DNA from: Eledone cirrhosa
Lineage: Eukaryota
Reading direction: 5' to 3'
Assembly (NCBI GenBank): GCA_964016885.1
Contig: OZ024741.1
Span: 114,948,001-115,012,000 of the forward strand
DNA: 64,000 nt
Shown here: one piece after another, positions 3,190-43,027 of the stretch
How positions within the stretch are numbered: position 1 is the stretch's first letter
Layout: every line of letters begins with the position of its first letter
Made by a program: the position numbers and the translations under genes
Notes under the pieces: model-generated
The model's input: only the letters and a program-made list of their open reading frames with translations
Told to the model about the DNA's origin: nothing
The model's database searches: none

Positions 3190-4174
3190 GTAGATAAATC
3201 TACCAAGAGTTTACGGTAGTGTCCAATCCGTATGAAGAACTCAATGTATTCCGGATATCATGGAAAGAAGAGATGTAATGAAAAATCACTTTCGGTGAAA
3301 GATAAACGGTATACAGAGTCAAGATAAAATATTAAACAAATAATGAATAAAACAATGAAACAGTTCCTTATATTAAACAAAAAAAGTTCATTATTTAACG
3401 ATCGTTTCTAGGATATATATGTGTTAGAATTGGTATGCATATTCAACAGATCTATGTACAAAATTATACAAAATTATACAAACTATCAAGATTAAATATA
3501 CATACCAACACATATATACGCCGTCTTCAGAAATAATGAAATATATTTATTGATAATAACAACAATTCAAAATTTCAGGTCCGTTTGGGAACAAAATTGA
3601 CCAATGAAAATACAAAAGGTTTTATGCAGTTCGGTGTGTGTATATACATGTAACTACCCTTACACATATTTTACAAAAATGTATGCTCAACATGTATACG
3701 CATACCAAAAGGATGGATGCAAATACAACATTTCAAGGTTAATGTCTCTGTAAGTTTATAATGCACAGATAAGATGCGTATAGACACATAATATGAAATA
3801 AGTGTATACACATATTCTCATACTCACACATATCCGTACAATCACACACACGCGCGCGTATATGCATAAACATACACATAATTACGAACATACAAACACA
3901 CACACACCCCCACTCACATATATATATATGTGGATATCATAAGCACATGGATATTAATTCACTCACATAAACACTGCCACACACATTTAGATCAAGAAAC
4001 AGAAATTAGGTGGGAGGGGGGGGGAGAGGTCAGTATTCAACGGTTTGGGCAGACTGCTTATTATAGATGTATCTATAAACTAAGAAAATAAAAAATAAAA
4101 ATTAAAAAGGAAAGAAAAGAAAAAGAAAAAAGAAAAAAGAAATATATCAAGAAAATATATATATATATATATAT

Positions 4175-4230
<56 letters not shown>

Positions 4231-4327
4231 ACATACATACATATACACACATCCACACTTAGAACATACATACACACACATATATAAACATATACATATA
4301 CACACATACACACATATACACACATAC

Positions 4328-4380
<53 letters not shown>

Positions 4381-4657
4381 TACACATATAATCACACATA
4401 CTATATAGACACACATATATATACACACATACACGCACATATACATACACATACATACTTATATACATACAGATATACACATACATACCTATATATACAC
4501 ACAAATACATACAGACATACATACATACATACACACAAATACTTACGCATCCATATATCGGTATATACATACAAACACCACTACACTCTCACACAACTCA
4601 GACATACAAAGAAAAAGGTATATACCTATACACATATACATATACAAATAGAGATAC

Positions 4658-4718
<61 letters not shown>

Positions 4719-4906
4719 CACATATACACACATATACATACATACACATACATACATGTACACACACATACATATACATACATACACACATACACACATA
4801 CATATATAGTCATACACACACATACACCTACACGAACATACACATACACATATATAAAGATATATATACACACACACATACACACACACACATATATATA
4901 AAATAA

Positions 4907-4949
<43 letters not shown>

Positions 4950-5276
4950 CATATACATACACACATACATAGACATATATGTACATACATACACATACAT
5001 ACATACATACACACACATATATACATATATATACACACATAGACACATACATACACACACAACATACATACACACACATATATACTCATACATAGAATTA
5101 GATATATATTCATACATACATACGCACTTACATATACTCATATATACAAATACATACGCATCCATATATGCGTATATACATACAAACACCACTACACCCT
5201 CACACAACTCAGACATACAAAGAAAAAGGCATATACATATACATATATACACACATTAATAGAGATATATATACAC

Positions 5277-5307
<31 letters not shown>

Positions 5308-5514
5308 CATTTATATATATAGACCCACACACACATACAACCATAAACACACATACAAACACATATACACATATATATACACATACATATATATACACAC
5401 ACACAAAAAACAGACATACACATATATATTTTTTTACACATATATATACACATATATATACATATACACACCCTCACATATACACACATACACATAAGTT
5501 ATATTATAATAATA

Positions 5515-5559
<45 letters not shown>

Positions 5560-5798
5560 CGAATATAGACATATATACACACATAGATATACATATATAT
5601 ATACATATACACACACACACACACACACTCACATATATATGTGCGCACACGTACATATATACACATACACACATATACACGTAAACACATACATGTGCAT
5701 ACATGCACATACACACATATACCCACATAGATACGAAGATAGACATATAAATAGAGAGACATACATATATATACACACACATATATACATACATACAT

Positions 5799-5863
<65 letters not shown>

Positions 5864-6684
5864 CACACATACACGCCCACACACATATACACATATACAT
5901 ATATATATACATACACACATACACATACACATATATATACACATGCATATATACACATATATATATATACATACACACATATATATACACACAATCTTAC
6001 ATTCTTATTTGCATGCGCATATATGTATTTTTATATTCAGATATAAATACCCAAACATATATACACCTACCTACATATATATTCATACATACACGCTTAC
6101 AAACACAGATGATAATAGTATGGGGGAAAGGGGGGGGGTTGGAGAAGGGGATTATAGTAAATATATGTTTCAAGAAACATAGAATATTATCTGTATCTGG
6201 ATCCAATGTATGTTTTTACATAGTTTCAGTGTTAGGAAATACAAGAAATAAGGCAAAATTTATGCATTTCAAAATAAATAAGTATACCATTAATTATATG
6301 TTAACTAAACTAAAGATAGTTAACATATTGATTTCTAAGGTGTAAATTAGTTAGGTTTATAATATTTGAAGCAGAATTTTGAAGTTAAATAGTAGTAGAG
6401 TATTAATTATAGTATAACTAAATTAAAGTTAATAACGTTATGGTATCAATATTAGGAAATGAATTTAGTAATAGGGAAAAAACAAATAAAGTATTACATC
6501 GGTAGTAGAATATAAATTATAGGTTAACTAAATTAAAAATTATATATTAATTTCTATAGTATATGTTAATTAGGTATATAATAAATAAAACAGATATTGT
6601 ATTTTATCAATAGCAGAATATAATTATATGCAAATAGAAATCAAAATTAATACATATACATATACATATACATACACACATATA

Positions 6685-6744
<60 letters not shown>

Positions 6745-9384
6745 TACACATACATATACATACATACATATACATATTTTTTCAAAAATTGCAAAGAATA
6801 TATTAACTAGGTATACATCCAAAACACATCCCATTCTATGATTACATGACACTCTGCAATCCGTCTGTATAAGGATACTAATTTTAAGCCAATTAAATTA
6901 AATTTTTAGGTTGACTAAATTTAAAACCAAATTATAAATATATTTCTAAAATGTATATTAATTAGGTCTATAATACTAAAAATTATTTCTCTGTCATTGG
7001 ATACACGATATTTTGTTATATTTTATCTGTAAAGGAATTTTAATAAAAGGTTTAAATAAATTAAAATTAATCTATAAATTAAATTACTAAGTATATATTA
7101 GTAATATTTAAAGGTTTTTCACAATTTATGATTACACAATATTTTATATTCTCATCTGTAGTAGAATTTTAATTAAATTAAATTTATAGGTTAACTAACA
7201 TTTAAATTAAATTAATTTCTAAAATAATGTTATTAATTAGGTTTATAATATTTAAATGTTTTTTTTAGTTTATGATTACACGATATAATTAATTCCTGTC
7301 GTTTATTTAATAGGATATCCTTAGATTTCATTATTTCAAATAGTTCTTGGGAACATAATCTACATTCATTTCTATTATTTTGATAAGGGGTGGCTCTTTT
7401 GAGCACACTCCAGGTCAAATCATATTCTATATTCTTATTTTTATAACTATTGATTTTTTCTGCTAGAGATGTTGTATTAGCCAGTGCGGCATTTCTAAAA
7501 CTATGCTTGTGGGTATTAAACCTTGTCTTAAAATTGTTAGAGGTAGCTCCTATATATGAGCAAATAGAATCTTTAGTTTTAACATTACATTTATAGACTA
7601 TGTTGTTAACAAGACAATTCCCTTTTAATGGGCAGTTTGCTTTGTTTCTACAGTTACAACCTTTCGTTAATTCTGTATTTGAGGAGATATTATGGTTAAT
7701 TTGATGTACTGGTGGTATACTTATGGTTTTCTTACATTTATATGCATTATAGGCACTTATATTTTGTTTTATGTTATTTGTTGTAGAGTATGAGAATTTA
7801 ACTGTAGACCTATTTAAGATTTGATGGTATTTGTGGTTTGGCGGGAAGTTTTTCTCTAGGATATAAAAAATTTTTTTAGCAATATTATCCTTAATTTGTA
7901 AATTAAATGGAGCATTATACCAAGTAACCCGTCTATTACGGTTTCTATGTTGTTTATTATTTTTATTATTTTTATAGGTTGTATCGTGATGTTTACTAGG
8001 AGGATTAATGTTAATGATCTCACCACAACCATTTTTAGTTATATTTGTAGATTTAGGTGTTTTATCCTTTTTATTAGGAGTTTTATTATTAATATTTATT
8101 AGAGTTGTATGATGAGTAGTTTTTTGAGAGTTACTATATTTTATATTAGAAGATTTGGTATTTTGGGGTATAGTGTGGGTGGCATTTAGGTGTGTACTTT
8201 TCATTTGGTGTTTGTTGGTAATATTAGGTTGTATGCTTTTAGTATTTTTAGTAGAAGGTATATATTCTAATCTATTTTTGTGGCCACTTCTATCTAGAGC
8301 TTCGTTATAGAAGGTCGCATTTTTATCAAATACATCTTGGTTAGAAGAAAGGTTAGAAATTCTAAGTGATATATTATATGCAAGGTTTTTAAGGATAGAT
8401 TTAGGGTGATTAGATTGTGAGTGTATGTAATGTAAGTTTTGGTTTGGTTTATGGTAAGGTTGGTAGATACCCGTAGCTAAATCTAAAGTTATATCTAGGA
8501 AATTTACTACTTTACTTGTTTTTTCAAAAGTAATATGAAGATTATAATAGTCTTTAAGGAAAGTTCTAATATGTTTTTTGTTTTTTTCAATTTCTGAAAG
8601 GCTAAGGTTGTTAGAAAGAAGAAGACAGTCATCACGATATAAACCACCTTTGAGGTGGGGAAAGGAGGCATTTATGTTGAAAAGGAGAAAGAGGCCCACA
8701 AGATCAGTAATTTGGGCGGAATCGCTTGAACCCATAGTAATATCAAATAGATTACTATATGTGTTTCTGGTCCAGTATTCATTCTGAAATTCAATAAGTG
8801 TTAGTCTAGCATGTGTAATAATATTAATGTCATCCAAAGTTAAGTTAGATCTATTTTTAGCAAATATCAATGCTTTGTTCAGGAGTATAGGTGATATAGA
8901 AGAATAGTAATTATCTATATCAAATTGTAGAAATGAAGCAGAAGATTTACATCTAATATTTTTAAACCAGTTAATTACCTGGGAGGTGTTTTCCCAGAGT
9001 GGTAAAATAACGTGTTTTCTTATTTGTGGGATGACTCTATCCAAAATTTTTTTGCTAATTATTCCAATATCTGATTTGGAGGGACATATAAGTCTAATAG
9101 AAGGATTTGAGTTAAAGTTTGATTTATGATCCTTCAGGTTGAAGTGTGGTCTTTTCAATGCAAAAGGTTCAGTTCTATCTTCAATGTTTAGTTTTTTTAC
9201 TATGTTGTGTGTTTTGTTGTTGATGTTGGTGAGTGACGCATTATTAGATTTTTTATAATTTTTTCTGAGTTCTTTATATATGAACTCATTATAATGTTCA
9301 ATATCCATATGATACAAGTTACCAGTTTTGTCCGAGTGGACATGGATTTTTTTAGACTTTTTTAGGTCCAATAGGGTAGAATCA
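3190..9384 (-). mobile_element. 5'-truncated Penelope-like element with ~4 kb 3' UTR and terminal pLTR/HHR
   Basis: ORF 7233-9404, long UTR, HHR at 3387-3540, (TA)n flank. Confidence 0.9.
3387..3540 (-). ncRNA. type I hammerhead ribozyme, long stem II
   Basis: rc: TTCATTATTT-CTGAAGA-[long stem II]-GAAA-CGATCG-TT-AAATAATGAA; 10-bp stem I, palindromic stem III. Confidence 0.8.
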
Positions 9385-9404
9385 AAAGAGCCACCCCTTA
9401 TCAA
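7233..9404 (-). CDS. PLE reverse transcriptase + GIY-YIG endonuclease (5'-truncated, frame uninterrupted; GLYRDD-type RT, tentatively Nematis-like)
   Basis: SDKTGNLY, RLICPSKSDIG, QFDI..YY, DITMGSSDSAQITDLVG, GLYRDD, FLDITL, CNC..CPL..C, IVYKC, YIG, FKTR; first ~7 codons come from the inverted arm. Confidence 0.92.
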   Translation of the reverse strand: MIRGGSFDSTLLDLKKSKKIHVHSDKTGNLYHMDIEHYNEFIYKELRKNYKKSNNASLTNINNKTHNIVKKLNIEDRTEPFALKRPHFNLKDHKSNFNSNPSIRLICPSKSDIGIISKKILDRVIPQIRKHVILPLWENTSQVINWFKNIRCKSSASFLQFDIDNYYSSISPILLNKALIFAKNRSNLTLDDINIITHARLTLIEFQNEYWTRNTYSNLFDITMGSSDSAQITDLVGLFLLFNINASFPHLKGGLYRDDCLLLSNNLSLSEIEKNKKHIRTFLKDYYNLHITFEKTSKVVNFLDITLDLATGIYQPYHKPNQNLHYIHSQSNHPKSILKNLAYNISLRISNLSSNQDVFDKNATFYNEALDRSGHKNRLEYIPSTKNTKSIQPNITNKHQMKSTHLNATHTIPQNTKSSNIKYSNSQKTTHHTTLININNKTPNKKDKTPKSTNITKNGCGEIININPPSKHHDTTYKNNKNNKQHRNRNRRVTWYNAPFNLQIKDNIAKKIFYILEKNFPPNHKYHQILNRSTVKFSYSTTNNIKQNISAYNAYKCKKTISIPPVHQINHNISSNTELTKGCNCRNKANCPLKGNCLVNNIVYKCNVKTKDSICSYIGATSNNFKTRFNTHKHSFRNAALANTTSLAEKINSYKNKNIEYDLTWSVLKRATPYQNNRNECRLCSQELFEIMKSKDILLNKRQELIISCNHKLKKTFKYYKPN

Positions 9405-10039
9405 AATAATAGAAATGAATGTAGATTATGTTCCCAAGAACTATTTGAAATAATGAAATCTAAGGATATCCTATTAAATAAACGACAGGAATTAATTATA
9501 TCGTGTAATCATAAACTAAAAAAAACATTTAAATATTATAAACCTAATTAATAACATTATTTTAGAAATTAATTTAATTTAAATGTTAGTTAACCTATAA
9601 ATTTAATTTAATTAAAATTCTACTACAGATGAGAATATAAAATATTATGTAATCATAAATTGTGAAAAACCTTTAAATATTACTAATATATACTTAGTAA
9701 TTTAATTTATAGATTAATTTTAATTTATTTAAACCTTTTATTAAAATTCCTTTACAGATAAAATATAACAAAATATCGTGTATCCAATGACAGAGAAATA
9801 ATTTTTAGTATTATAGACCTAATTAATATACATTTTAGAAATATATTTATAATTTGGTTTTAAATTTAGTCAACCTAAAAATTTAATTTAATTGGCTTAA
9901 AATTAGTATCCTTATACAGACGGATTGCAGAGTGTCATGTAATCATAGAATGGGATGTGTTTTGGATGTATACCTAGTTAATATATTCTTTGCAATTTTT
10001 GAAAAAATATGTATATGTATGTATGTATATGTATGTGTA

Positions 10040-10110
<71 letters not shown>

Positions 10111-10917
10111 ATGTATATGTATATGTATATGTATTAATTTTGATTTCTATTTGCATATAATTATATTCTGCTATTGATAAAATACAATATCTGTTTTATT
10201 TATTATATACCTAATTAACATATACTATAGAAATTAATATATAATTTTTAATTTAGTTAACCTATAATTTATATTCTACTACCGATGTAATACTTTATTT
10301 GTTTTTTCCCTATTACTAAATTCATTTCCTAATATTGATACCATAACGTTATTAACTTTAATTTAGTTATACTATAATTAATACTCTACTACTATTTAAC
10401 TTCAAAATTCTGCTTCAAATATTATAAACCTAACTAATTTACACCTTAGAAATCAATATGTTAACTATCTTTAGTTTAGTTAACATATAATTAATGGTAT
10501 ACTTATTTATTTTGAAATGCATAAATTTTGCCTTATTTCTTGTATTTCCTAACACTGAAACTATGTAAAAACATACATTGGATCCAGATACAGATAATAT
10601 TCTATGTTTCTTGAAACATATATTTACTATAATCCCCTTCTCCAACCCCCCCCTTTCCCCCATACTATTATCATCTGTGTTTGTAAGCGTGTATGTATGA
10701 ATATATATGTAGGTAGGTGTATATATGTTTGGGTATTTATATCTGAATATAAAAATACATATATGCGCATGCAAATAAGAATGTAAGATTGTGTGTATAT
10801 ATATGTGTGTATGTATATATATATGTGTATATATGCATGTGTATATATATGTGTATGTGTATGTGTGTATGTATATATATATGTATATGTGTATATGTGT
10901 GTGGGCGTGTATGTGTG

Positions 10918-10956
<39 letters not shown>

Positions 10957-11195
10957 ATGTATGTATGTATATATGTGTGTGTATATATATGTATGTCTCT
11001 CTATTTATATGTCTATCTTCGTATCTATGTGGGTATATGTGTGTATGTGCATGTATGCACATGTATGTGTTTACGTGTATATGTGTGTATGTGTATATAT
11101 GTACGTGTGCGCACATATATATGTGAGTGTGTGTGTGGGTGTGTGTATATGTATATATATATGTATATCTATGTGTGTATATATGTCTATATTCG

Positions 11196-11238
<43 letters not shown>

Positions 11239-11445
11239 TATTATTATAATATAACTTATGTGTATGTGTGTATATGTGAGGGTGTGTATATGTATATATA
11301 TGTGTATATATATGTGTAAAAAAATATATATGTGTATGTCTGTTTTTTGTGTGTGTGTATATATATGTATGTGTATATATATGTGTATATGTGTTTGTAT
11401 GTGTGTTTATGGTTGTATGTGTGTGTGGGTCTATATATATAAATG

Positions 11446-11476
<31 letters not shown>

Positions 11477-11807
11477 GTGTATATATATCTCTATTAATGT
11501 GTGTATATATGTATATGTATATGCCTTTTTCTTTGTATGTCTGAGTTGTGTGAGGGTGTAGTGGTGTTTGTATGTATATACGCATATATGGATGCGTATG
11601 TATTTGTATATATGAGTATATGTAAGTGCGTATGTATGTATGAATATATATCTAATTCTATGTATGAGTATATATGTGTGTGTATGTATGTTGTGTGTGT
11701 ATGTATGTATATTTCTATGTGTGTATATATATGTATATATGTGTGTGTATGTATGTATGTATGTGTATGTATGTACATATATGTCTATGTATGTGTGTAT
11801 GTATATG

Positions 11808-11854
<47 letters not shown>

Positions 11855-12364
11855 TTATTTTATATATATGTGTGTGTGTGTATATATATCTTTATATATG
11901 TGTATGTGTATGTTCGTGTAGGTGTATGTGTGTGTATGACTATATATGTATGTGTGTATGTGTGTATGTATGTATATGTATGTGTGTGTACATGTATGTA
12001 TGTGTATGTATGTATATGTGTGTATATGTGTATGTATATATATATATATATATATATGTGTATATATATATATATATATATGTATATGTATCTCTATTTG
12101 TATATGTATATGTGTATAGGTATATACCTTTTTCTTTGTATGTCTGAGTTGTGTGAGAGTGTAGTGGTGTTTGTATGTATATACCGATATATGGATGCGT
12201 AAGTATTTGTGTGTATGTATGTATGTATGTCTGTATGTATTTGTGTGTATATATAGGTATGTATGTGTATATCTGTATGTATATAAGTATGTATGTGTAT
12301 GTATATGTGCGTGTATGTGTGTATATATATGTGTGTCTATATAGTATGTGTGATTATATGTGTA

Positions 12365-12423
<59 letters not shown>

Positions 12424-12520
12424 GTATGTGTGTATATGTGTGTATGTGTGTATATGTATATGTTTATATATGTGTGTGTATGTATGTTCTAAGTGTGGAT
12501 GTGTGTATATGTATGTATGT

Positions 12521-12570
<50 letters not shown>

Positions 12571-13415
12571 ATATATATATATATTTTCTTGATATATTTC
12601 TTTTTTCTTTTTTCTTTTTCTTTTCTTTCCTTTTTAATTTTAATTTTTTATTTTCTTAGTTTATAGATACATCTATAATAAGCAGTCTGCCCAAACCGTT
12701 GAATACTGACCTCTCCCCCCCCTCCCACCTAATTTCTGTATCTTGATCTAAATGTGTGTGGCAGTGTTTATGTGAGTGAATTAATATCCATGTGCTTATG
12801 ATATCCACATATATATATATGTGAGTGGGGGTGTGTGTGTGTTTGTATGTTCGTAATTATGTGTATGTTTATGCATATACGCGCGCGTGTGTGTGATTGT
12901 ACGGATATGTGTGAGTATGAGAATATGTGTATACACTTATTTCATATTTATGTGTCTATACGCATCTTATCTGTGCATTATAAACTTACAGAGACATTAA
13001 CCTTGAAATGTTGTATTTGCATCCATCCTTTTGGTATGCGTATACATGTTGAGCATACATTTTTGTAAAATATGTGTAAGGGTAGTTACATGTATATACA
13101 CACACCGAACTGCATAAAACCTTTTGTATTTTCATTGGTCAATTTTGTTCCCAAACGGACCTGAAATTTTGAATTGTTGTTATTATCAATAAATATATTT
13201 AATTATTTCTGAAGACGGCGTATATATGTGTTGGTATGTATATTTAATCTTGATAGTTTGTATAATTTTGTATAATTTTGTACATAGATCTGTTGAATAT
13301 GCATACCAATTCTAACACATATATATCCTAGAAACGATCGTTAAATAATGAACTTTTTTTGTTTAATATAAGGAACTGTTTCATTGTTTTATTCATTATT
13401 TGTTTAATATTTTAT
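9384..13415 (+). mobile_element. inverted ~4 kb copy of the 3' end of the same PLE
   Basis: reverse complement of ~3324-7400; differs mainly in microsatellite lengths and a few SNPs. Confidence 0.95.
13202..13349 (+). ncRNA. type I hammerhead ribozyme
   Basis: ATTATTT-CTGAAGA(13209)-stem II-GAAA(13331)-CGATCG-TT-AAATAAT. Confidence 0.8.
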
Positions 13416-15910: not shown

Positions 15911-16032
15911 TATATATAAGTTGTAATAAAATGAAAACGAAATTTCATTTCTCACTCTTAGTACGGCACTTACTTAAATGTAAGTATGTATGTATACGTA
16001 CATACATATATGTATACAGACGTACAGTAGCA

Positions 16033-16097
<65 letters not shown>

Positions 16098-16101
<4 letters not shown>

Positions 16102-16128
16102 GACGTAAAATAAGAAAATATTTTTTTA

Positions 16129-16164
<36 letters not shown>

Positions 16165-16703
16165 TTTTCTTACTTAAATTTTCACTCCAACTAATTAGTT
16201 TCTGCAATGGGATAAAGACAGTTATGTAATCCAACTGTCGAGAATTCATTGCGTCATCAGGAAGTCTATTCTCAGTTAAGTCTCCAGGCAATGCGCGGAC
16301 ACTGGCGGCTCATATAAAAATAATAATAATTCGGTAGATCGAACAGCTTGCGAGGACTGAATTCTATGTACCGAAATTCTCACTGCTTCAAGTCAAATGG
16401 CCGATTCTAAAGAATCAATCACGTGACACAGAGGCTAGTTAGAAGGAATGGGATGGTAAGATGACTGACGCCTACTAACACCCCAAAAAAAAAATTTTTT
16501 TAGAAGTGGTTTTGACAAGTTTGCTCGACAAATCAGTGATTTGGAGATAAATATAGATAATTTAATATATCAACTAACATAAGCGCACATATGCACGCCC
16601 ATGCCAGCAAATACACAGGTTATGTCATAGTACCTAGGTGGTTCAATGCAGGAGAATGCAGAACAATAATATAAAGGACGTAAAATAAGAAAATATTTTT
16701 TTA

Positions 16704-16735
<32 letters not shown>

Positions 16736-18157
16736 TGTTTTTCTTACTTAAATTTTCACTCCAACTAATTAGTTTCTGCAATGGGATAAAGACAGTTATG
16801 TAATCCAACTGTCGAGAATTCATTGCGTCATCAGGAAGTCTATTCTCAGTTAAGTCTCCAGGCAATGCGCGGACACTGGCGGCTCATATAAAAATAATAA
16901 TAATTCGGTAGATCGAACAGCTTGCGAGGACTGAATTCTATGTACCGAAATTCTCACTGCTTCAAGTCAAATGGCCGATTCTAAAGAATCAATCACGTGT
17001 TTTTTTTTTTTTTTTTATTTTTTTTTTTTTTTTTTAAATTTTTTTAAAAAAATATTTTCTTATTTTACGTCCTTTATATTATTGTTCTGCATTCTCCTGC
17101 ATTGAACCACCTAGGTACTATGACATAACCTGTGTATTTGCTGGCATGGGCGTGCATATGTGCGCTTATGTTAGTTGATATATTAAATTATCTATATTTA
17201 TCTCCAAATCACTGATTTGTCGAGCAAACTTGTCAAAACCACTTCTAAAAAAATTTTTTTTTGGGGTGTTAGTAGGCGTCAGTCATCTTACCATCCCATT
17301 CCTTCTAACTAGCCTCTGTGTCACGTGATTGATTCTTTAGAATCGGCCATTTGACTTGAAGCAGTGAGAATTTCGGTACATAGAATTCAGTCCTCGCAAG
17401 CTGTTCGATCTACCGAATTATTATTATTTTTATATGAGCCGCCAGTGTCCGCGCATTGCCTGGAGACTTAACTGAGAATAGACTTCCTGATGACGCAATG
17501 AATTCTCGACAGTTGGATTACATAACTGTCTTTATCCCATTGCAGAAACTAATTAGTTGGAGTGAAAATTTAAGTAAGAAAAACATTTTTTTTTTTTTTT
17601 TTTTTTAAATTTTTTTAAAAAAATATTTTCTTATTTTACGTCCTTTATATTATTGTTCTGCATTCTCCTGCATTGAACCACCTAGGTACTATGACATAAC
17701 CTGTGTATTTGCTGGCATGGGCGTGCATATGTGCGCTTATGTTAGTTGATATATTAAATTATCTATATTTATCTCCAAATCACTGATTTGTCGAGCAAAC
17801 TTGTCAAAACCACTTCTAAAAAAATTTTTTTTTTGGGGTGTTAGTAGGCGTCAGTCATCTTACCATCCCATTCCTTCTAACTAGCCTCTGTGTCACGTGA
17901 TTGATTCTTTAGAATCGGCCATTTGACTTGAAGCAGTGAGAATTTCGGTACATAGAATTCAGTCCTCGCAAGCTGTTCGATCTACCGAATTATTATTATT
18001 TTTATATGAGCCGCCAGTGTCCGCGCATTGCCTGGAGACTTAACTGAGAATAGACTTCCTGATGACGCAATGAATTCTCGACAGTTGGATTACATAACTG
18101 TCTTTATCCCATTGCAGAAACTAATTAGTTGGAGTGAAAATTTAAGTAAGAAAAACA

Positions 18158-18191
<34 letters not shown>

Positions 18192-20049
18192 TAAAAAAAT
18201 ATTTTCTTATTTTACGTCCTTTATATTATTGTTCTGCATTCTCCTGCATTGAACCACCTAGGTACTATGACATAACCTGTGTATTTGCTGGCATGGGCGT
18301 GCATATGTGCGCTTATGTTAGTTGATATATTAAATTATCTATATTTATCTCCAAATCACTGATTTGTCGAGCAAACTTGTCAAAACCACTTCTAAAAAAA
18401 TTTTTTTTTGGGGTGTTAGTAGGCGTCAGTCATCTTACCATCCCATTCCTTCTAACTAGCCTCTGTGTCACGTGATTGATTCTTTAGAATCGGCCATTTG
18501 ACTTGAAGCAGTGAGAATTTCGGTACATAGAATTCAGTCCTCGCAAGCTGTTCGATCTACCGAATTATTATTATTTTTATATGAGCCGCCAGTGTCCGCG
18601 CATTGCCTGGAGACTTAACTGAGAATAGACTTCCTGATGACGCAATGAATTCTCGACAGTTGGATTACATAACTGTCTTTATCCCATTGCAGAAACTAAT
18701 TAGTTGGAGTGAAAATTTAAGTAAGAAAAACATTTTTTTTTTTTTTTTTTTTTAAATTTTTTTAAAAAAATATTTTCTTATTTTACGTCCTTTATATTAT
18801 TGTTCTGCATTCTCCTGCATTGAACCACCTAGGTACTATGACATAACCTGTGTATTTGCTGGCATGGGCGTGCATATGTGCGCTTATGTTAGTTGATATA
18901 TTAAATTATCTATATTTATCTCCAAATCACTGATTTGTCGAGCAAACTTGTCAAAACCACTTCTAAAAAAATTTTTTTTTGGGGTGTTAGTAGGCGTCAG
19001 TCATCTTACCATCCCATTCCTTCTAACTAGCCTCTGTGTCACGTGATTGATTCTTTAGAATCGGCCATTTGACTTGAAGCAGTGAGAATTTCGGTACATA
19101 GAATTCAGTCCTCGCAAGCTGTTCGATCTACCGAATTATTATTATTTTTATATGAGCCGCCAGTGTCCGCGCATTGCCTGGAGACTTAACTGAGAATAGA
19201 CTTCCTGATGACGCAATGAATTCTCGACAGTTGGATTACATAACTGTCTTTATCCCATTGCAGAAACTAATTAGTTGGAGTGAAAATTTAAGTAAGAAAA
19301 ACATTTTTTTTTTTTTTTTTTTTAAATTTTTTTAAAAAAATATTTTCTTATTTTACGTCCTTTATATTATTGTTCTGCATTCTCCTGCATTGAACCACCT
19401 AGGTACTATGACATAACCTGTGTATTTGCTGGCATGGGCGTGCATATGTGCGCTTATGTTAGTTGATATATTAAATTATCTATATTTATCTCCAAATCAC
19501 TGATTTGTCGAGCAAACTTGTCAAAACCACTTCTAAAAAAATTTTTTTTTTGGGGTGTTAGTAGGCGTCAGTCATCTTACCATCCCATTCCTTCTAACTA
19601 GCCTCTGTGTCACGTGATTGATTCTTTAGAATCGGCCATTTGACTTGAAGCAGTGAGAATTTCGGTACATAGAATTCAGTCCTCGCAAGCTGTTCGATCT
19701 ACCGAATTATTATTATTTTTATATGAGCCGCCAGTGTCCGCGCATTGCCTGGAGACTTAACTGAGAATAGACTTCCTGATGACGCAATGAATTCTCGACA
19801 GTTGGATTACATAACTGTCTTTATCCCATTGCAGAAACTAATTAGTTGGAGTGAAAATTTAAGTAAGAAAAACATTTTTTTTTTTTTTTTTTTTAAATTT
19901 TTTTAAAAAAATATTTTCTTATTTTACGTCCTTTATATTATTGTTCTGCATTCTCCTGCATTGAACCACCTAGGTACTATGACATAACCTGTGTATTTGC
20001 TGGCATGGGCGTGCATATGTGCGCTTATGTTAGTTGATATATTAAATTA

Positions 20050-20056
<7 letters not shown>
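16098..20056. repeat. inverted tandem array of ~571-575 bp units, one HHR per unit (retrozyme-like)
   Basis: left arm 16098-16998 (HHR on - at 16184-16265, 16758-16839); right arm ~17000-20056 (HHR on + starting 17482, 18054, 18629, 19200, 19771); copies appear to differ only in homopolymer length. Confidence 0.93.
17482..17563 (+). ncRNA. type I hammerhead ribozyme (representative of 7 copies)
   Basis: ACTTC-CTGATGA-cGCAATG..GACAGTT/AACTGTC..CATTGCa-GAAA-CTAATTAG-TT-GGAGT. Confidence 0.88.
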
Positions 20057-20093
<37 letters not shown>

Positions 20094-20501
20094 CAGGTAC
20101 ACATACATATATGTACGTATCAGTTTAGCGGACGCTTATTATAGCGCCCGCTTTGTTCGTTTGTAAACAAACTGAACAGCCTGAATTTATGCCGTACGGT
20201 GTTAAGGCAACCACGTCACCTTTTTGTTCAACACTGACACAGGAACGATGTACTAGTTTAAAGCTTGTTAGCTATCATCAGCACCGTATACCCTTCTGCC
20301 AGTATATACTTTTCTCATGAAAATTAACGGCTGAGCAGCCTAATTTGCATATGGAGTGAGTTCGGCCAGGCGTACCGAGAACGATAAGTTGTAATAAAAT
20401 GAAAACGAAATTTCATTTCTCACCTCTTAGTACGGCACTTACTTAAATGTAAGTATCTATGTATACGTACATACATATATGTATACAGACGTACAGTAGC
20501 A

Positions 20502-20644
<143 letters not shown>

Positions 20645-23321: not shown

Positions 23322-26300
23322 ATGTATACATATATGTATGTACGTATACATGCATACTTACATTTAAGTAAGTGCCATACTAAGAGTGAGAAATGAAATT
23401 TCGTTTTCATTTTGTTTCAATTTATCGTTTTCGGTATGCCTGACCGATTTAACTCACTCAATATGCAAATTAGGCTGCTCAGCCTTAATTTTCATAAGGA
23501 AAGTATATACTTTCGAACGTTCAACTATCTGGCAGATGGGTAAACGGTGCTGATGATAGCTAACAAGCTTGAAACTAGTACATCGTTCCTGTGTCAGTGT
23601 TGAACAAAAAGGTGACGTGGTTGCCTTAACACCGTATGGCATAAATTCAGGCTGTTCAGTTTGTTTACAAACGAACAAAGCGACGTTATAATAAGCGCCG
23701 CTAAACTGATACGTGCATATATGTATGTGTACCTGTATGCATATGTATGTATATATATATATATATATATGTGCATGCTACTGTACGTCTGTATACATAT
23801 ATGTATGTACGTATACATGCATACTTACATTTAAGTAAGTGCCATACTAAGAGTGAGAAATGAAATTTCGTTTTCATTTTGTTTCAATTTATCGTTTTCG
23901 GTATGCCTGACCGATTTAACTCACTCAATATGCAAATTAGGCTGCTCAGCCTTAATTTTCATAAGGAAAGTATATACTTTCGAACGTTCAACTATCTGGC
24001 AGATGGGTAAACGGTGCTGATGATAGCTAACAAGCTTGAAACTAGTACATCGTTCCTGTGTCAGTGTTGAACAAAAAGGTGACGTGGTTGCCTTAACACC
24101 GTATGGCATAAATTCAGGCTGTTCAGTTTGTTTACAAACGAACAAAGCGACGTTATAATAAGCGCCGCTAAACTGATACGTGCATATATGTATGTGTACC
24201 TGTATGCATATGTATGTATATATGTATATATATATATATATGTGCATGCTACTGTACGTCTGTATACATATATGTATGTACGTATCCATGCATACTTACA
24301 TTTAAGTAAGTGCCATACTAAGAGTGAGAAATGAAATTTCGTTTTCATTTTGTTTCAATTTATCGTTTTCGGTATGCCTGACCGATTTAACTCACTCAAT
24401 ATGCAAATTAGGCTGCTCAGCCTTAATTTTCATAAGGAAAGTATATACTTTCGAACGTTCAACTATCTGGCAGATGGGTAAACGGTGCTGATGATAGCTA
24501 ACAAGCTTGAAACTAGTACATCGTTCCTGTGTCAGTGTTGAATAAAAAGGTGACGTGGTTGCCTTAACACCGTATGGCATAAATTCAGGCTGTTCAGTTT
24601 GTTTACAAACGAACAAAGCGACGTTATAATAAGCGCCGCTAAACTGATACGTGCATATATGTATGTGTACCTGTATGCATATATATGTATATATGTATAT
24701 ATATATATATATGTGCATGCTACTGTACGTCTGTATACATATATGTATGTACGTATACATGCATACTTACTTTTAAGTAAGTGCCATACTAAGAGTGAGA
24801 AATGAAATTTCGTTTTCATTTTGTTTCAATTTATCGTTTTCGGTATGCCTGACCGATTTAACTCACTCAATATGCAAATTAGGCTGCTCAGCCTTAATTT
24901 TCATAAGGAAAGTATATACTTTCGAACGTTCAACTATCTGGCAGATGGGTAAACGGTGCTGATGATAACTAACAAGCTTGAAACTAGTACATCGTTCCTG
25001 TGTCAGTGTTGAACAAAAAAGTGACGTGGTTGCCTTAACACCGTATGGCATAAATTCAGGCTGTTCAGTTTGTTTACAAACGAACAAAGCGACGTTATAA
25101 TAAGCGCCACTAAACTGATACGTGCATATATGTATGTGTACCTGTATGCATATGTATGTATATATATATATATATATATGTGCATGCTACTGTACGTCTG
25201 TATACATATATGTATGTACGTATACATGCATACTTACATTTAAGTAAGTGCCATACTAAGAGTGAGAAATGAAATTTCGTTTTCATTTTGTTTCAATTTA
25301 TCGTTTTCGGTATGCCTGACCGATTTAACTCACTCAATATGCAAATTAGGCTGCTCAGCCTTAATTTTCATAAGGAAAGTATATACTTTCGAACGTTCAA
25401 CTATCTGGCAGATGGGTAAACGGTGCTGATGATAACTAACAAGCTTGAAACTAGTACATCGTTCCTGTGTCAGTGTTGAACAAAAAAGTGACGTGGTTGC
25501 CTTAACACCGTATGGCATAAATTCAGGCTGTTCAGTTTGTTTACAAACGAACAAAGCGACGTTATAATAAGCGCCACTAAACTGATACGTGCATATATGT
25601 ATGTGTACCTGTATGCATATGTATGTATATATATATATATATATATGTGCATGCTACTGTACGTCTGTATACATATATGTATGTACGTATACATGCATAC
25701 TTACATTTAAGTAAGTGCCATACTAAGAGTGAGAAATGAAATTTCGTTTTCATTTTGTTTCAATTTATCGTTTTCGGTATGCCTGACCGATTTAACTCAC
25801 TCAATATGCAAATTAGGCTGCTCAGCCTTAATTTTCATAAGGAAAGTATATACTTTCGAACGTTCAACTATCTGGCAGATGGGTAAACGGTGCTGATGAT
25901 AGCTAACAAGCTTGAAACTAGTACATCGTTCCTGTGTCAGTGTTGAACAAAAAGGTGACGTGGTTGCCTTAACACCGTATGGCATAAATTCAGGCTGTTC
26001 AGTTTGTTTACAAACGAACAAAGCGACGTTATAATAAGCGCCGCTAAACTGATACGTGCATATATGTATGTGTACCTGTATGCATATGTATGTATATATA
26101 TATATATATATATGTGCATGCTACTGTACGTCTGTATACATATATGTATGTACGTATACATGCATACTTACATTTAAGTAAGTGCCATACTAAGAGTGAG
26201 AAATGAAATTTCGTTTTCATTTTGTTTCAATTTATCGTTTTCGGTATGCCTGACCGATTTAACTCACTCAATATGCAAATTAGGCTGCTCAGCCTTAATT

Positions 26301-27181
26301 TTCATAAGGAAAGTATATACTTTCGAACGTTCAACTATCTGGCAGATGGGTAAACGGTGCTGATGATAGCTAACAAGCTTGAAACTAGTACATCGTTCCT
26401 GTGTCAGTGTTGAACAAAAAGGTGACGTGGTTGCCTTAACACCGTATGGCATAAATTCAGGCTGTTCAGTTTGTTTACAAACGAACAAAGCGACGTTATA
26501 ATAAGCGCCGCTAAACTGATACGTGCATATATGTATGTGTACCTGTATGCATATGTATGTATATATGTATATATATATATATATATGTGCATGCTACTGT
26601 ACGTCTGTATACATATATGTATGTACGTATCCATGCATACTTACATTTAAGTAAGTGCCATACTAAGAGTGAGAAATGAAATTTCGTTTTCATTTTGTTT
26701 CAATTTATCGTTTTCGGTATGCCTGACCGATTTAACTCACTCAATATGCAAATTAGGCTGCTCAGCCTTAATTTTCATAAGGAAAGTATATACTTTCGAA
26801 CGTTCAACTATCTGGCAGATGGGTAAACGGTGCTGATGATAGCTAACAAGCTTGAAACTAGTACATCGTTCCTGTGTCAGTGTTGAATAAAAAGGTGACG
26901 TGGTTGCCTTAACACCGTATGGCATAAATTCAGGCTGTTCAGTTTGTTTACAAACGAACAAAGCGACGTTATAATAAGCGCCGCTAAACTGATACGTGCA
27001 TATATGTATGTGTACCTGTATGCATATGTATGTATATATGTATATATATATATATATATGTGCATGCTACTGTACGTCTGTATACATATATGTATGTACG
27101 TATACATGCATACTTACATTTAAGTAAGTGCCATACTAAGAGTGAGAAATGAAATTTCGTTTTCATTTTGTTTCAATTTAT
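23322..27181 (+). repeat. tandem array of ~8.2 units of 467-473 bp, one minimal HHR per unit (retrozyme-like)
   Basis: HHRs start at 23543, 24010, 24481, 24952, 25419, 25886, 26353, 26826. Confidence 0.95.
23543..23587 (+). ncRNA. minimal type I hammerhead ribozyme (representative of 8 copies)
   Basis: AACGGTG-CTGATGA-tAGCT AACA AGCTt-GAAA-CTAG-TA-CATCGTT. Confidence 0.9.
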
Positions 27182-27763: not shown

Positions 27764-27798
27764 GGAGAACATGATATGAAGGCTAAAAAAATGAGATT

Positions 27799-29703
27799 AT
27801 GTCAAAACTTGGCATTGAAAAAAAGACCGAACCATTCCTCCCAAGAACTCCGAGGATAAATCTCAAGGATCACAAAAGCAATTTTCGCACTGAACTACCT
27901 GTTAGATTAATCGCCCCCTCTAAATCTGATCTAGGGGTTGTTAGTAAAGCCATCTTGGATAGGATTATCCCACAGGTTAGTTCTAATTGCTCTTATTTAA
28001 ACCTAAATTTATGGTTTGGTACTTCTGAAGTGATTGGCTGGTTCAACAAATTGGATAATAAAAACAAACTAAAATTTATTCAATTCGATATTGCCAGCTA
28101 CTATTCCTCCATTTCGCCTTCACTTCTCAATAATGCTCTATCTTTCGCACTTAAATATTCTGACATCACCACAGATGAACTTCACATCATCCTCACCGCA
28201 CGTAAAACCATCCTAGAGTTCAACAACGAATATTGGACCAGAGCCGATACCTCTAACAACTTCGACATCACAATGGGAGCATCCGATTCATCCCAAATGA
28301 CTGATTTAATTGGTATCTTCATTTTGAACTCTTTGAGTCGGAAAATTCCTCAACTTCGCGGTGGAATTTATCGTGACGATGGACTCTTTACTATCCTAAA
28401 TTGCAATATAGTTAAACTTAATATTATTAAGAACAATATACGTAATCTCTTTAACCAACATAACCTAAAAATTGAATTTGATAATAGTATCAAACTAGCT
28501 AATTTCTTGGATGTATCTCTTAATCTTGACACTGGCCTATATTACCCTTACCATAAAAACAATGAGAATCTTAATTATGTTAACTTTAAATCTAACCATC
28601 CTACCAATATCAAGAATGCTATAGTTAATAATATTGGAAATAGAATATCTAACATATCTTCTAATAAAAACATCTTTGATGCTAACGCCAATTACTATAA
28701 TAACGCACTTTCTAAAGCCGGCTATCCAGATAAAATCAAATATAATAAAGAAACAAATTCTAGGAAAACTTACAGTAGAATAATTAATCTTGACCATTCC
28801 AATAATTTTAATAAAAGACCTAGATACAAAAACATAATCTGGTATAATGCTCCTTTCTCCATCTCTATTAATAACAATATTCCTAAATTATTTTTTAATG
28901 CCTTAAATAAATGCTTCCCTCCCTCACATATCTATAGTAAAATATTTAACAAACACACCATCAAATTTTCGTATTCTACATCCTCCAATATTTCCAACAT
29001 CATCTCTAAACACAACAACAAAATATTAAATACTAAATCTCTTCCTTCCAATATTGAATTTCATAATAACAGTAATAGTACTCCCGACGTCATTGTAAAC
29101 CCTAGGCTAACTTCTGTAAACCCAAATACAACGTCAAACACAACTTCGCTAAATGTTCATAATCCAACTCTAAATCAAGAAACTATTATTCCTATTATTC
29201 CTATCGCAAACAACTTCTCCAATCCAATTCCTTCTATAGATAACACTAGATCACTCATTAATAATCTCTCTAATTGCAACTGCCGCATTAAAAATAAATG
29301 TCCTCTCAACAACCATTGCCTCGATAAAAACTTAATTTATGAATGTAAAATTATAACTAGCACCAATTCCTTCACCTATTTTGGCTCCACTTCCACCTGT
29401 TTTAAAGCTCGTCTCTATAATCATCATTCATCTTTCAAATACAAACTTAAAAGAACTAACACTGCTCTCTCAGAACTCACATGGTCCTTAAAAGACAAAA
29501 ACATTAAATATAACATCTTTTGGAAAAAGATTTCTTCTGCATCCTCATACTTGAACAGCTCTCTATCTAAAATCTGTAATCTCTGCCTAAATGAAAAATT
29601 TACCATTATCTCTAACCTAGAATCTATAATAAATAGACGCTCAGATTTGTTTTCTATCTGCCTGCATACATTCCATAGAACTTTTCACAAAGTATACAGT
29701 TAA
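27799..29703 (+). CDS. PLE RT + GIY-YIG endonuclease (5'-truncated, frame uninterrupted)
   Basis: RLIAPSKSDLG, QFDIASYY, DITMGASDSSQMTDLIG, GIYRDDGL, SNHP, CNC..CPL..C, LIYEC, YFG, FKARL. Confidence 0.92.
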   Translation: MSKLGIEKKTEPFLPRTPRINLKDHKSNFRTELPVRLIAPSKSDLGVVSKAILDRIIPQVSSNCSYLNLNLWFGTSEVIGWFNKLDNKNKLKFIQFDIASYYSSISPSLLNNALSFALKYSDITTDELHIILTARKTILEFNNEYWTRADTSNNFDITMGASDSSQMTDLIGIFILNSLSRKIPQLRGGIYRDDGLFTILNCNIVKLNIIKNNIRNLFNQHNLKIEFDNSIKLANFLDVSLNLDTGLYYPYHKNNENLNYVNFKSNHPTNIKNAIVNNIGNRISNISSNKNIFDANANYYNNALSKAGYPDKIKYNKETNSRKTYSRIINLDHSNNFNKRPRYKNIIWYNAPFSISINNNIPKLFFNALNKCFPPSHIYSKIFNKHTIKFSYSTSSNISNIISKHNNKILNTKSLPSNIEFHNNSNSTPDVIVNPRLTSVNPNTTSNTTSLNVHNPTLNQETIIPIIPIANNFSNPIPSIDNTRSLINNLSNCNCRIKNKCPLNNHCLDKNLIYECKIITSTNSFTYFGSTSTCFKARLYNHHSSFKYKLKRTNTALSELTWSLKDKNIKYNIFWKKISSASSYLNSSLSKICNLCLNEKFTIISNLESIINRRSDLFSICLHTFHRTFHKVYS

Positions 29704-31984: not shown

Positions 31985-34900
31985 TTAAACCATATTTAAT
32001 GCTGGTCTATATTTTTGAATAAACATATTTTCCTTATTTATTCGTATTTGTTCTGTTGTATTGTTAGCGCAAAGCTAAAATGGGAAGACTTGGAATTTGG
32101 GTGTCTTATTACTTGCGCATATGTGTAGATATGCGCTTAGTGGTATCTGTCTCGTGGTTGGATCTCGTAATTGTTGGCGATGAACTGTCATTCTGTTTCA
32201 AATTGTGAGTTTAGTTTGTCCTATATAATCTTCATTGCATCCTTTACATTTAAAGTAGATTTTTTGATGAGCAAGTGAAGTGATTTTTTACAGTAAAATT
32301 TTGTCCTGATTTAAATGTATACGTGTTGCCTTCAATGAGGTGAGTGCAGGTTCCACAATTAGAGCGACCATATTTTTTGACACTTGGTTGTGGGTTTGTG
32401 GTAGGTAATTTGGCATTGGTGAGTAATGTTTTCAGTGATTTCGGTTGTCTTTTGCTTTTGATTATTTTGTGCGTTTCAAGGGCTTTTTTCATTCTTGGGT
32501 TTTGTTTTAGTAGTGGGATGTTCTTGTGAATAGTATTGTAAGCTTCCGGATTTCTTGGGTTGTGTGTTGAGATATATGATAGAATATTGGACGTACCTTG
32601 AATTTGTTTCTGTTTTCGTAATTCATCAATGCCTATTGCTTTAGCCCTTTCTATTCCATTATTTATTAGTAATAGTGGGTACTCTCTTCCGAGTAGAATT
32701 TCCTTTAATTCTTGAAGTCTTTTATTTCGCGTTTCATAATTGGAGACAATTGTGCAAATTCTTCTTGCTAGGTTAAAAGGAATGTTCGTCTTCGTGTGCT
32801 TTGGGTGGTTGGAGGTGAATACCAGGTATTGTTTGGAATCTGTTGGTTTGTAGTGTATGTCAGTTTCAATATGTGTGTCTTTTTTTAAGATTAAGATGTC
32901 CAGAAATGGGAGTTGATCTTGGCTGTATTCCATTGGGAATTGGATGTGGTTATTGATGCCGTTTATTAAGTTTTTGAAATCCTTCAGTTGGTCGAGTGTG
33001 TGGGACCAAAGAATGAGACAATCATCCAAGTAGCGTTTCCAATTCTCTGATAAATATTTGTGGAAGTTCAATCCGTATTTTGATTTGGACTTTTCATATA
33101 TCTGGACTTCTAAGTATGCCATGACTAAGTTGGCATAAGTTGGAGCGGCTTTTGTACCCATCGCAGTCCCGGATATTAATTAGTTTGTAAGTACTGCCAT
33201 CGAAATCAAAAAAGTTGTTCTGTAAGATGAATTTTAATCCCTCGGTGATGAAGCTTTTTTCTATTCTTTCAGGTATCTCATTGGGATATATCTCTAGCTA
33301 GAATCCTATTGCTTCTAGTCCGTATTGGTGTGGGATCGTTGTGTAGAGATTCACTACATCGAAAGACACAATAATAGTGTCGTTGTTGACATGTTTGGGG
33401 AGGTGGTTTAAGAGGTCCAGATCGTCTCTTACAAGGCTTGGTATGTGTTTGAGAATTGGTTTTAGTAGTATGTCTATAAAGTTGCTCAGTCTGTGTGTTT
33501 TACATTGTGGGCCCGCTACAATTGGTCTTAATTTAAGGTCTGTGGGGTATTGTGTGTTTACGCAGGTTGAGGTGGATTGTTTACAGGCATCGTTAATCAT
33601 TTTACACTTGTGGATCTTCGGAAGTCCGTAAAGGTTGCTGGTTTTGTATTCAAAATGTGTTAGATAATCGCGTTCCTTTTTAGTTAGGTCTTCCTGGTAT
33701 CGATAAATCAGTGTGTTTAATCTGGTCATTGTTTTTGATTGCTGGTAGTTTTTTACTCTTTCATAGTAATTAGTATTTTGTAAGAGAGAGAACATAGAAT
33801 TTTTATATTTTTCAGCCTCCATAATGACAACAGTACTTCCCTTGTCCGCTTCCTTAATTATAATGTCCGTATTGTTTTTCAGTTCATGGATAATCTCCCA
33901 TTCCCTTCGACTCGTGTTGGGTTTGGGTTTAGGTTGCGGTAGTTCATGGTATGGGAAGGTAGCTATGTGGTCACACAATTTGTCCAGAACTCTGTTTCTA
34001 CCTTTTGTTGGGTTGTAGCTGCTTTTATTCCGTACAATTGATTCGTCGTTATTCTCCTTGTCAAAGAATTCCTCCGTGAGACGTAATTTTCTACGAGAAG
34101 TGTGAGATATCGTCATTTATCTCATTGGGGTTAGAGTATTGTGGTGTTGGCGTGAATTTCAGTCCTTTGGGGATAATTTTTACTTGTTGGGCTGAGAGGT
34201 TTGTATTTGAAAGGTTGATTATTTTCGGTTTTTCAAAATCGGTTTGTGCCACCGGGTGTCGTGGGTCCTGTAGCCTTGGTCTAAAAAAGGATTTTTCTGG
34301 AATGTTTTTTCAATGGTATATCTAATGGTATTTCCCCTGTTGTTGTGTGGTATTAATAGAAGTTTCGGACGTAATGAGCTTCGGTTTGTTGATAGTCCGG
34401 GTTGTAGATTTTGTTCCTTTGTGTGGGTTGGGATCTACGGTTTTGGAACAGGCTCTGTGTGGGCAGGGGTCTACGGTTTTGGAATAGGTTTTGTGTGGGT
34501 TGTGATCTGCGGATCGGGTCCTGCCTTGTGTTCGGGGATCTTCGGTTTTTGTTAGTAGGGTTATAGTTTTGTCTATGGTTTCTGGGATTATCGTTATAGT
34601 TTTGCTGGGGGTATGTTGGACGTTTTGTTACTTTTTTTGTTATTTGTTGTGCATGTGGTGTGTGAGTTTTAGTTTGTTTTAAAAATGGGTTACCTGTATG
34701 TTGTTCATTTTTGAAGTCCATTTCGTAGTTGTTGAACCAGGTGACATTTTTTTCCCATCGCTGGAGGGATATTAGTTCTTCATCCTCACAGTTTTCTTTC
34801 CAAAGTTTTAAGGTTTTTTCGTAGAGTAGGCCTTCAGAGTGCTTTGACATTTCTGTGTCCATCTGTTGGTCGAGTGACTTGAATTTTTCTTCGTTGGAGT

Positions 34901-35413
34901 TGGCTCTTAATCGCAACAGTTGTATTTCTATTTTAAATTTTTCTAACGCCATTTTTTCCCTAAGTTTTTGTTGGTTTTATGGTTCATTCGGGATGGGTTT
35001 TATTTGAAGTTTTTTGGGGAGGATGATTGGGGTAGAGTTTAGCCACTTTTCATATATGTCTGCCTTGCCATTATTTTTTAGGAGATTCCAAAGGGCGAAT
35101 TTGCGGGCTCTGAGCTTTTGAGTCCATAGTTGATTAGGGTGTTTTTCACTGAGTGGACATCTCGTAGATTGGGTTCTAACGGTTGTTCCAGCGTTTGGAG
35201 CATTGTTGTTTCAATGGTTTCGATTAGCTTAGTTAATGCTGGAGTAATATTCGTCTCTTGGGTATTTTCTGTTTCTTCGTGGGGTCCTGTTTTATAGATG
35301 TGTATTTGGTCCACTTTATTGTTCAAAATTGAGAGTTTAGAGGAAATCTTTTTGAGTTCATTTAAGATGTCCTGGTTCAGTGAGTTGTTGTTTTGTTGAG
35401 ACTTTGGTGTCAT
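31985..35413 (-). pseudogene. Neptune-like PLE ORF (long N-terminal extension, RT, Cys linker, GIY-YIG), several frameshifts/stops
   Basis: IKEADKG, YGLPKIHK, LRPIVAG, SFDVVNLYTTIPH, MGTKAAPTYANL, RYLDD, YKPTD..QYL..SNHP, CKGCNEDYIGQT. Confidence 0.88.
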
Positions 35414-35579
35414 TTTCGGTCTTCGTGTGGTGTGTATATATTAGAAAGTGAGGTTTTTTTTTACAAAATGAAAAATAACCGAGGTGTCCTACACGAGTGA
35501 AAGTATAAAGATAAAAAGATGAAATCGAAAATGCAACTGGAGTCTTATTTAAAAAAATATATATATTTCTTTACTTGGT

Positions 35580-42932: not shown

Positions 42933-43027
42933 TTTACTTGTTCCTATAGTTATATATATATAGTTATATATAGTTATATATATATTTATATGTATATAGT
43001 TAGATATATATATATATAGTTAGATAT

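Follow-up and report, generated by a model that had tools for sequence, protein, structure and literature searches.

The window analysed here, a stretch of 64,000 nucleotides from Eledone cirrhosa (contig OZ024741.1), harbours a tandem array that is organized in two arms of opposite orientation and that landed in the internal (TA)n of one copy of a 467-bp hammerhead family (Table 1). Positions within the repeat are given as phases, phase 1 being the base that follows the predicted hammerhead cleavage site in the 572-nt reference unit (17559-18130). The full units of the array measure 571-575 nt, with two poly-T runs (T20-25 and T9-10) as their sole differences, and the arms comprise 1.58 and 5.31 units; the original prediction of about 1.6 minus-strand and 5.3 plus-strand units, near-identical except for homopolymer length, is thus borne out. 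The longest ATG frame on the circularised unit spans only 36 aa, so that the repeat is non-coding, and the absence from the unit of an ORF for a reverse transcriptase (RT) with a C-terminal GIY-YIG domain makes it non-autonomous. The GC content of the unit is 0.33-0.34 and no long terminal repeats (LTRs) are found at the ends.

Table 1. Coordinates of the array, its parts and its surroundings (positions in the window)
Feature	Position	Strand	Description
Whole array	16094..20056	minus then plus arm, head to head	Both arms and the insert that joins them
Left arm	16094..16999	-	1.58 units, cut short on the 5' side at phase 336; at the 'short' site (phase 92) the 3' end runs into (TA)n
Head-to-head junction	17000..17017	.	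18-nt T17A insert; duplicates the poly-T run at the start of the plus arm
Right arm	17018..20056	+	5.31 units; 5'-truncated in poly-T (phase ~31); 3' end at the 'long' site, phase 210
Reference unit	17559..18130	+	572 nt, non-coding
Type I hammerhead motif	17482..17563	+	Helix I of 5 bp, then CUGAUGA, a long helix II in two parts, GAAA and a palindromic helix III; triplet GUU, cleavage predicted to follow 17558
Further plus-strand hammerhead copies	18054-18135, 18629-18710, 19200-19281, 19771-19852	+	
Left-arm hammerhead motifs	16758..16839 and 16184-16265	-	
'Tail', 118 nt	19939..20056	+	Between the two fixed 3' end positions; right-arm end only
Predicted 23-bp hairpin	17703..17754	+	Phases 145-196, between the two fixed end sites; structure prediction
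(TA)n tract, left end	16036..16098	.	
(TA)n tract, right end	20057..20093	.	
Host element, left part	15916..16067	-	Copy of the 467-bp hammerhead family
Host element, right part	20055..20536	-	Shares 90% identity with the 467-bp units of 23323-27181; hammerhead core degenerate
Autonomous Hydra-clade Penelope-like ORF, 5'-truncated	27787..29703	+	Hammerhead core at 30703; comparison family

The unit is widely dispersed, with at least 245 matches in its own genome (the best 40 of 629 candidates being scored), located on at least 16 contigs among the matches listed. The window array and 38 other loci from the listed matches form the set of 39 loci considered below; these were chosen by their best match to a near-full unit, for which reason short insertions are under-sampled. 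Unit size across the family is 558-575 nt. Outside homopolymer tracts, 135 units differ on average by 1.64 substitutions between loci and by 0.33 within a locus, and the low divergence between loci indicates that the family, as dated from its sequences, is very young. The earlier description of a recent, retrotransposed hammerhead repeat is supported. Older subfamilies, 88-96% identical, are also present, two of which form arrays that fill at least 40 kb of the fetched DNA; these satellite arrays of at least 40 kb (L149-L152 and L153-L155, 88-93% identical) include one with a higher-order repeat of ~7 kb. Sequence related to the unit (query 17650-18130) was found in contigs of four public sequencing runs from four organisms, which has no bearing on expression, and none of the public sequencing runs listed with matching sequence is an RNA run.

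Comparison of the 39 loci revealed a strict organization of the ends. Every arm, read in the hammerhead sense, points outwards, and the 63 outer (3') ends are without exception confined to two unit positions, either at phase 86-92 (34 ends: 32 at 92, one at 86 and one at 91) or at phase 206-210 (29 ends: 27 at 210 and two at 206). Twenty-four of the loci are two-armed, all of them minus-then-plus and all with one end at each site (24/24; p 6e-8 if the arms chose freely), while the 15 one-armed loci end at 92 in ten cases and at 210 in five. The two arms of a locus consequently differ in their ends and are not mirror images, the 118-nt tail being found at one end only in all 24. Both end sites finish in TATAT, but no end falls at the equally long TATAT/TA runs of phases 196 and 449, and homology to the target is thus insufficient for end choice. 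The predicted hairpin at phases 145-196 is inferred to be a candidate binding site for a helper protein. Nearly all exact ends (54 of 59) are followed by (TA)n of at least 10 nt, and in an empty-site comparison for L046 and L066 the two flanks belonged to different repeats.

The inner (5') ends, on the other hand, are scattered over the unit (n = 63; chi-square p 0.37), with a cluster of borderline significance at phases 502-507, in the hammerhead core (7/63, p 0.04). Arm lengths range from 0.2 to 11 units, neither arm being consistently longer (p 0.19), and the arms are joined through overlaps of 1-5 nt, blunt joins or short inserts. The proposal that the arms start and stop at different phases therefore describes the inner ends, which vary among loci, and not the outer ones, which are fixed. 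Random priming on a circle, with the randomly permuted ends originally predicted, would account for the spread of the inner ends, but is refuted for the outer ends by their confinement to two values and by the one-of-each arrangement, and is almost certainly wrong as an account of these insertions.

The same rule is obeyed by two further families. A sister non-coding family, first seen in L064, has a unit of ~533 nt that is 71% identical to that of the main family; it was found at 28 loci, both ends were typed in 17 and each of these 17 has one end of each kind. The second is the coding family of the truncated Penelope-like ORF of the window, with at least 150 matches (150/150 scored candidates), many with open frames of 821 aa. 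Twenty minus/plus pairs of this family were fetched before their ends were seen: both ends were found in 18 pairs, all 18 having one short and one long end, ~87 nt apart and located 3' of a hammerhead, and the remaining two pairs gave one end only. The coding ORFs carry DKT, CxCx5C, CxxC and CxH motifs around the endonuclease, and DKT, CxCx5C and CxxC/CxH define the Hydra clade, which inserts into (TA)n (PMC8557442, section 11, in part). None of six Penelope-type frames scanned was named by Pfam, which recognized only an unrelated LINE-type RT, and the clade assignment therefore rests on these motifs. In tandem autonomous copies at L147 and L148 the tail continues into the start of the 821-aa frame, which identifies the coding element itself as a permuted unit of ~3.9 kb.

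Sharing a two-site end rule with a coding Penelope-like family, the retrozyme bears the insertion scar of Penelope-like machinery, and it is likely, judging from these ends, that the main retrozyme is copied by an enzyme of the Penelope-like kind. The hammerhead and the tail of the Hydra-clade coding family examined differ from those of the retrozyme. A hammerhead census and an upstream-ORF test of 0.83 Mb of fetched DNA found no autonomous element sharing the unit sequence, and a search with the tail only, extended to 20 more stretches (top candidates scored), returned older retrozyme subfamilies and no helper. An array located 3' of a Hydra-type ORF at L156 was discarded as a link to a helper, as unrelated and simple-repeat sequence separates the two.

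Fixed ends had been expected to mark a simple satellite, an expectation that does not hold here: fixed 3' ends are a Penelope-like signature, present also in the coding family. A simple satellite, a DNA fold-back or an assembly expansion at a single locus could be envisaged from the homopolymer-only differences between units, which could be sequencing noise, and from the arrays of more than 40 kb formed by related older subfamilies. Such an origin is nevertheless very improbable: the arrays are short and scattered, their 3' ends are fixed for the family and their 5' ends variable, haplotypes are private to the locus, the two arms have different ends and are not mirror images, and four public runs, from four organisms, have contigs with sequence related to the unit. 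We classify the array as a non-LTR retrozyme with Penelope-type ends, one member of a young, non-coding and dispersed family.

A motif scan located seven hammerhead motifs in the array, with the palindromic ACTAATTAGT as helix III, while the same scan on 20 block-shuffled windows gave no match in any of them. Rfam returned no match in the window at the gathering threshold and, at E<=10, four chance-level matches in the window, none of them a ribozyme; the Rfam hammerhead models fail to score the motif because of its 51-nt helix II arm. The type I core is complete (CUGAUGA, GAAA, A15.1-U16.1 and a NUH triplet, GUU), and the core stretch is identical in 181 of 183 copies. However, the first G-C pair of helix II is set off from the core by a C.A mismatch, and 20/20 aligned sequences of both the main and the sister family have an extra A between the helix II C and GAAA. 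In the canonical arrangement the G10.1-C11.1 pair directly adjoins G12, and for Penelope hammerheads an additional base between 9 and 10.1 is nothing unusual (PMC4209133, in part); in the array hammerhead the extra A separates that pair from G12. On account of the mismatch and extra A beside helix II, together with the GUU triplet, catalysis is not implied by the sequence of the array hammerhead. The hammerhead predicted as intact is thus so in its letters, all of which are present in the core, but departs from the canonical form beside helix II.

Computed pair probabilities are 0.8-1.0 for helix I (five pairs) and for helix II (six pairs and a distal seven-pair hairpin), and ~0.2 for the 10-nt palindrome of helix III, for which computation gives +1.5 kcal/mol as a hairpin versus -9.0 kcal/mol as a homoduplex. 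A palindromic helix III that is weak as a monomer corresponds to the dimer-type arrangement of hammerheads (PMC4209133, in part), and the modelled array hammerhead fits this arrangement, its helix III being short and weak as a monomer, in agreement with the palindromic, dimer-type stem III proposed for each unit. Across the main and sister families (20 distinct sequences), five of 21 pairs are altered on both sides and 97% of cells are paired, a covariation that essentially reflects one divergence event between the two families. More than 12 distinct families of type I hammerheads with a palindromic helix III were observed in the 0.83 Mb of fetched DNA, many of which have a U.U, C.A or G.U mismatch, rather than G-C, at the base of helix II.

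The distribution of variants provides information on the RNA template. The two arms are concordant at both common polymorphisms of the family, in 14/14 and 19/19 informative loci (permutation p 0.001 and <5e-5, respectively), and copying of both arms of a locus from one RNA template is the reading favoured by these sequences. In the window array a private 171A is present in 7/7 copies, in both arms, and a private A>C change in the first A-run is also common to both arms; at L054 a private 408A is found in 11/11 full units. Altogether, in four of the 28 multi-unit loci, the window array included, all full units carry one and the same private substitution, and in none of the 28 is a substitution outside homopolymer tracts present in some but not all units, as expected from a bottleneck of one unit, i.e. 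a monomer. No indel occurs at the cleavage site in 195 unit junctions that cross it, and all 63 5' ends are more than 5 nt away from the site; the latter is weak evidence taken alone, since 1.2 ends would be expected by chance. Together, the clean crossings and the missing ends speak against end-to-end jumping on cleaved linear monomers.

These observations make a circular monomer the probable template. An uncleaved linear multimeric transcript, copied from the same Penelope-like twin start with no circle and with the hammerhead being dispensable or acting later, would likewise leave the junctions clean and the cleavage site free of 5' ends, and the large arrays of older subfamilies (L149-L155) could have served as its source. 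In addition, L034 has an A>C variant of a homopolymer tract in two of six units, and homopolymer-tract patterns of roughly period 3 are seen in L033 and L054; such mosaics are more readily explained by multimeric templates, or by duplication at a later time, than by a pure monomer. A strict dimer-circle periodicity, hinted at by alternating match scores, was not confirmed in the unit comparison. On the other hand, a linear multimer would need a one-unit bottleneck or fast homogenisation to explain private substitutions in all units of both arms (171A, 7/7; 408A of L054, 11/11), as well as an extra constraint to yield strictly one end of each kind from several copies of each start site, and the maintenance of helix II and its distal hairpin by compensatory changes also counts against it. 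On balance, the linear multimer appears unlikely. Two published results weigh against a role for the hammerhead in insertion: its mutation was without effect on insertion in vitro, where the end of none of the reads coincided with the cleavage site (PMC11167929), and eight of nine predicted retrozymes did not cleave (bioRxiv 10.64898/2026.07.22.740005, in part).

With a circular monomer as the preferred template, there is reasonable support for a model in which one insertion is made by a Hydra-clade Penelope-like RT-endonuclease that copies one RNA from two fixed internal starts. Tandem copies would be transcribed, cut by their hammerheads as dimers and ligated to circles of ~560-575 nt. A helper protein, probably a dimer, would nick both strands of (TA)n, as suggested by the flanks and by the protein of PMC11167929; the two DNA ends would then prime on the same RNA, one at phase 210 and one at phase 92, with the long hairpin in between, which would generate the observed ends. 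Each RT would travel around the template for the 0.2-11 units observed and stop at a variable place, and the two cDNAs would be joined head to head by microhomology of 1-5 nt or short templated inserts, as seen in the junctions. One-armed loci may arise when only one start site yields a product, and a few loci of older subfamilies would later have expanded to satellite arrays of more than 40 kb.

The sister family (L099-L128) displays an additional feature at its long site, where CTCT precedes TATAT. A variable (CT)n of 8-84 nt, usually continued by (TA)n, follows 17 of 21 long ends and none of 24 short ends, while 33/33 internal copies keep exactly 4 nt at CTCT; the main family, without CTCT at the long site, has a CT run at 0/59 ends. 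Landing in a pre-existing (CT)n was rejected, given that (AG)n never occurs on the opposite flank (0/24 short ends). The simplest reading is one of reiterative copying at initiation, a telomerase-like stuttering suggested by these sequences, although the runs may instead have expanded after insertion, seeded by the adjoining (TA)n. More tentatively, and with some doubt, Hydra-clade enzymes may perform an obligate twin priming, in which a dimer with two RTs uses two fixed sites on one (circular) RNA, combined with a telomerase-like stutter on a template of 2-4 nt that writes a microsatellite at each insertion; the (CT)n runs at the long ends of the sister family would then be its trace. If true, stuttering on UAUAU would lengthen (TA)n and thereby supply fresh targets, and such a feedback might contribute to the build-up of microsatellite-rich genomes.

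The array shares with metazoan non-LTR retrozymes, for which a circRNA template and a Penelope-like helper have been proposed (PMC7229834 and bioRxiv 10.64898/2026.07.22.740005, both in part), a non-coding, low-GC tandem organization with a type I hammerhead in each unit, but differs in its 51-nt helix II arm and in its unit of 558-575 nt. The unit had been considered larger than that of typical animal retrozymes, which is correct relative to ~300 bp (PMC7229834, in part), but it falls inside the range of 51-972 bp (bioRxiv 10.64898/2026.07.22.740005, in part). In the portions of these two sources used here, the link to Penelope is argued from co-occurrence and pLTR similarity, and neither the text of PMC7229834, in the part used, where 'inverted' occurs 0 times, nor the main text of the preprint describes inverted arms or fixed paired 3' ends.

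Hydra-clade Penelope-like elements (PMC8557442, in part) resemble the array in being 5'-truncated and partially tandem, in having an inverted, 5'-truncated copy and a tail at one end only, in their (TA)n targets and in the hammerhead near the 3' end. The retrozyme differs from them by the lack of an ORF and by a tail of 118 nt (~87 nt in the coding family here), as opposed to 30-40 nt, and its strict one-of-each ends compare with an arrangement found 'often' in that account. The Penelope-like protein of PMC11167929 cuts and extends both target strands, and RT starts at two internal sites bounding the tail; in this element, Anolis Poseidon PAc, the two start sites lie 3' of the hammerhead, as here. 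For PAc, however, start sites were not reported to differ between strands or to follow a pairing rule, in contrast to the strict pairing found here, and its start site is without target homology, while both sites of the retrozyme end in TATAT, which matches the target repeat. Non-autonomous Chlamys elements, MRC1 for instance, differ from the array in that they mostly lack canonical hammerheads and that a known autonomous family has 3' sequence in common with them (PMC8557442, in part), a partner not found here, and an active pair of autonomous and non-autonomous Chlamys elements has been described (PMC9977147, in part). For inverted Penelope ends, self-priming on an antisense template has been proposed (PMC3846280, in part), whereas the joined inner ends here are mostly non-palindromic and at unrelated phases. 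Recent Penelope copies in shrimp have been tied to long (AT)n as carriers, not writers, of the repeat (PMC7878876, in part).

Both sites are fixed in the retrozyme and both arms traverse the whole unit several times, which sets it apart from the twin priming of L1. There, two target ends prime on one RNA and the inverted 5' part is joined by microhomology, the second site being variable and the arms having no sequence overlap.

The tail and the inverted copy are already known, and a link between retrozymes and Penelope has already been proposed. No earlier statement of the strict one-of-each rule or of such retrozyme ends, nor of repeat addition by a Penelope-like RT, was found in the literature covered, mostly the text of openly available papers. 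The movement of retrozymes and the origin of inverted, tailed Penelope-like insertions are stated open questions (PMC11167929; PMC8557442 and bioRxiv 10.64898/2026.07.22.740005, both in part). Since one strict end rule is obeyed by three young families, of which two are non-coding and the third has intact ORFs, the link between retrozymes and Penelope now rests on an insertion scar and not on co-occurrence. With an RNA of 572 nt, start sites mapped at two positions and a candidate enzyme of 821 aa, twin priming, the use of a circle and stuttering can be tested directly in vitro.

The window contains several other elements. A second retrozyme family is represented at 23323-27181 by 8.2 tandem copies of the 467-bp unit, which has an internal (TA)n and a compact type I hammerhead with a palindromic ACTAGT helix III, and relatives of which lie at 43797-44422. 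At 62550-64000, a 483-bp hammerhead repeat comprises two minus units and an inverted arm from 63503, in the two-armed layout of the main array. A 10-kb palindrome (3324-13415) is formed by 4-kb inverted arms about a Hydra-type ORF (7233-9425, minus) and has a long 3' region rich in simple repeats, and more Hydra-type Penelope-like elements with repeated termini are found at 38562-42947 and 43046-43501, a stop at ~40626 splitting the ORF. From their motifs, we take the broken ORF at 32250-35440 (minus) to be Penelope-like and of another clade, and 47568-48167 to be a fragment of a mariner-like transposase; 58193-61331 is presumably a LINE-type element, with an endonuclease assigned by its motifs and an RT recognized by Pfam.
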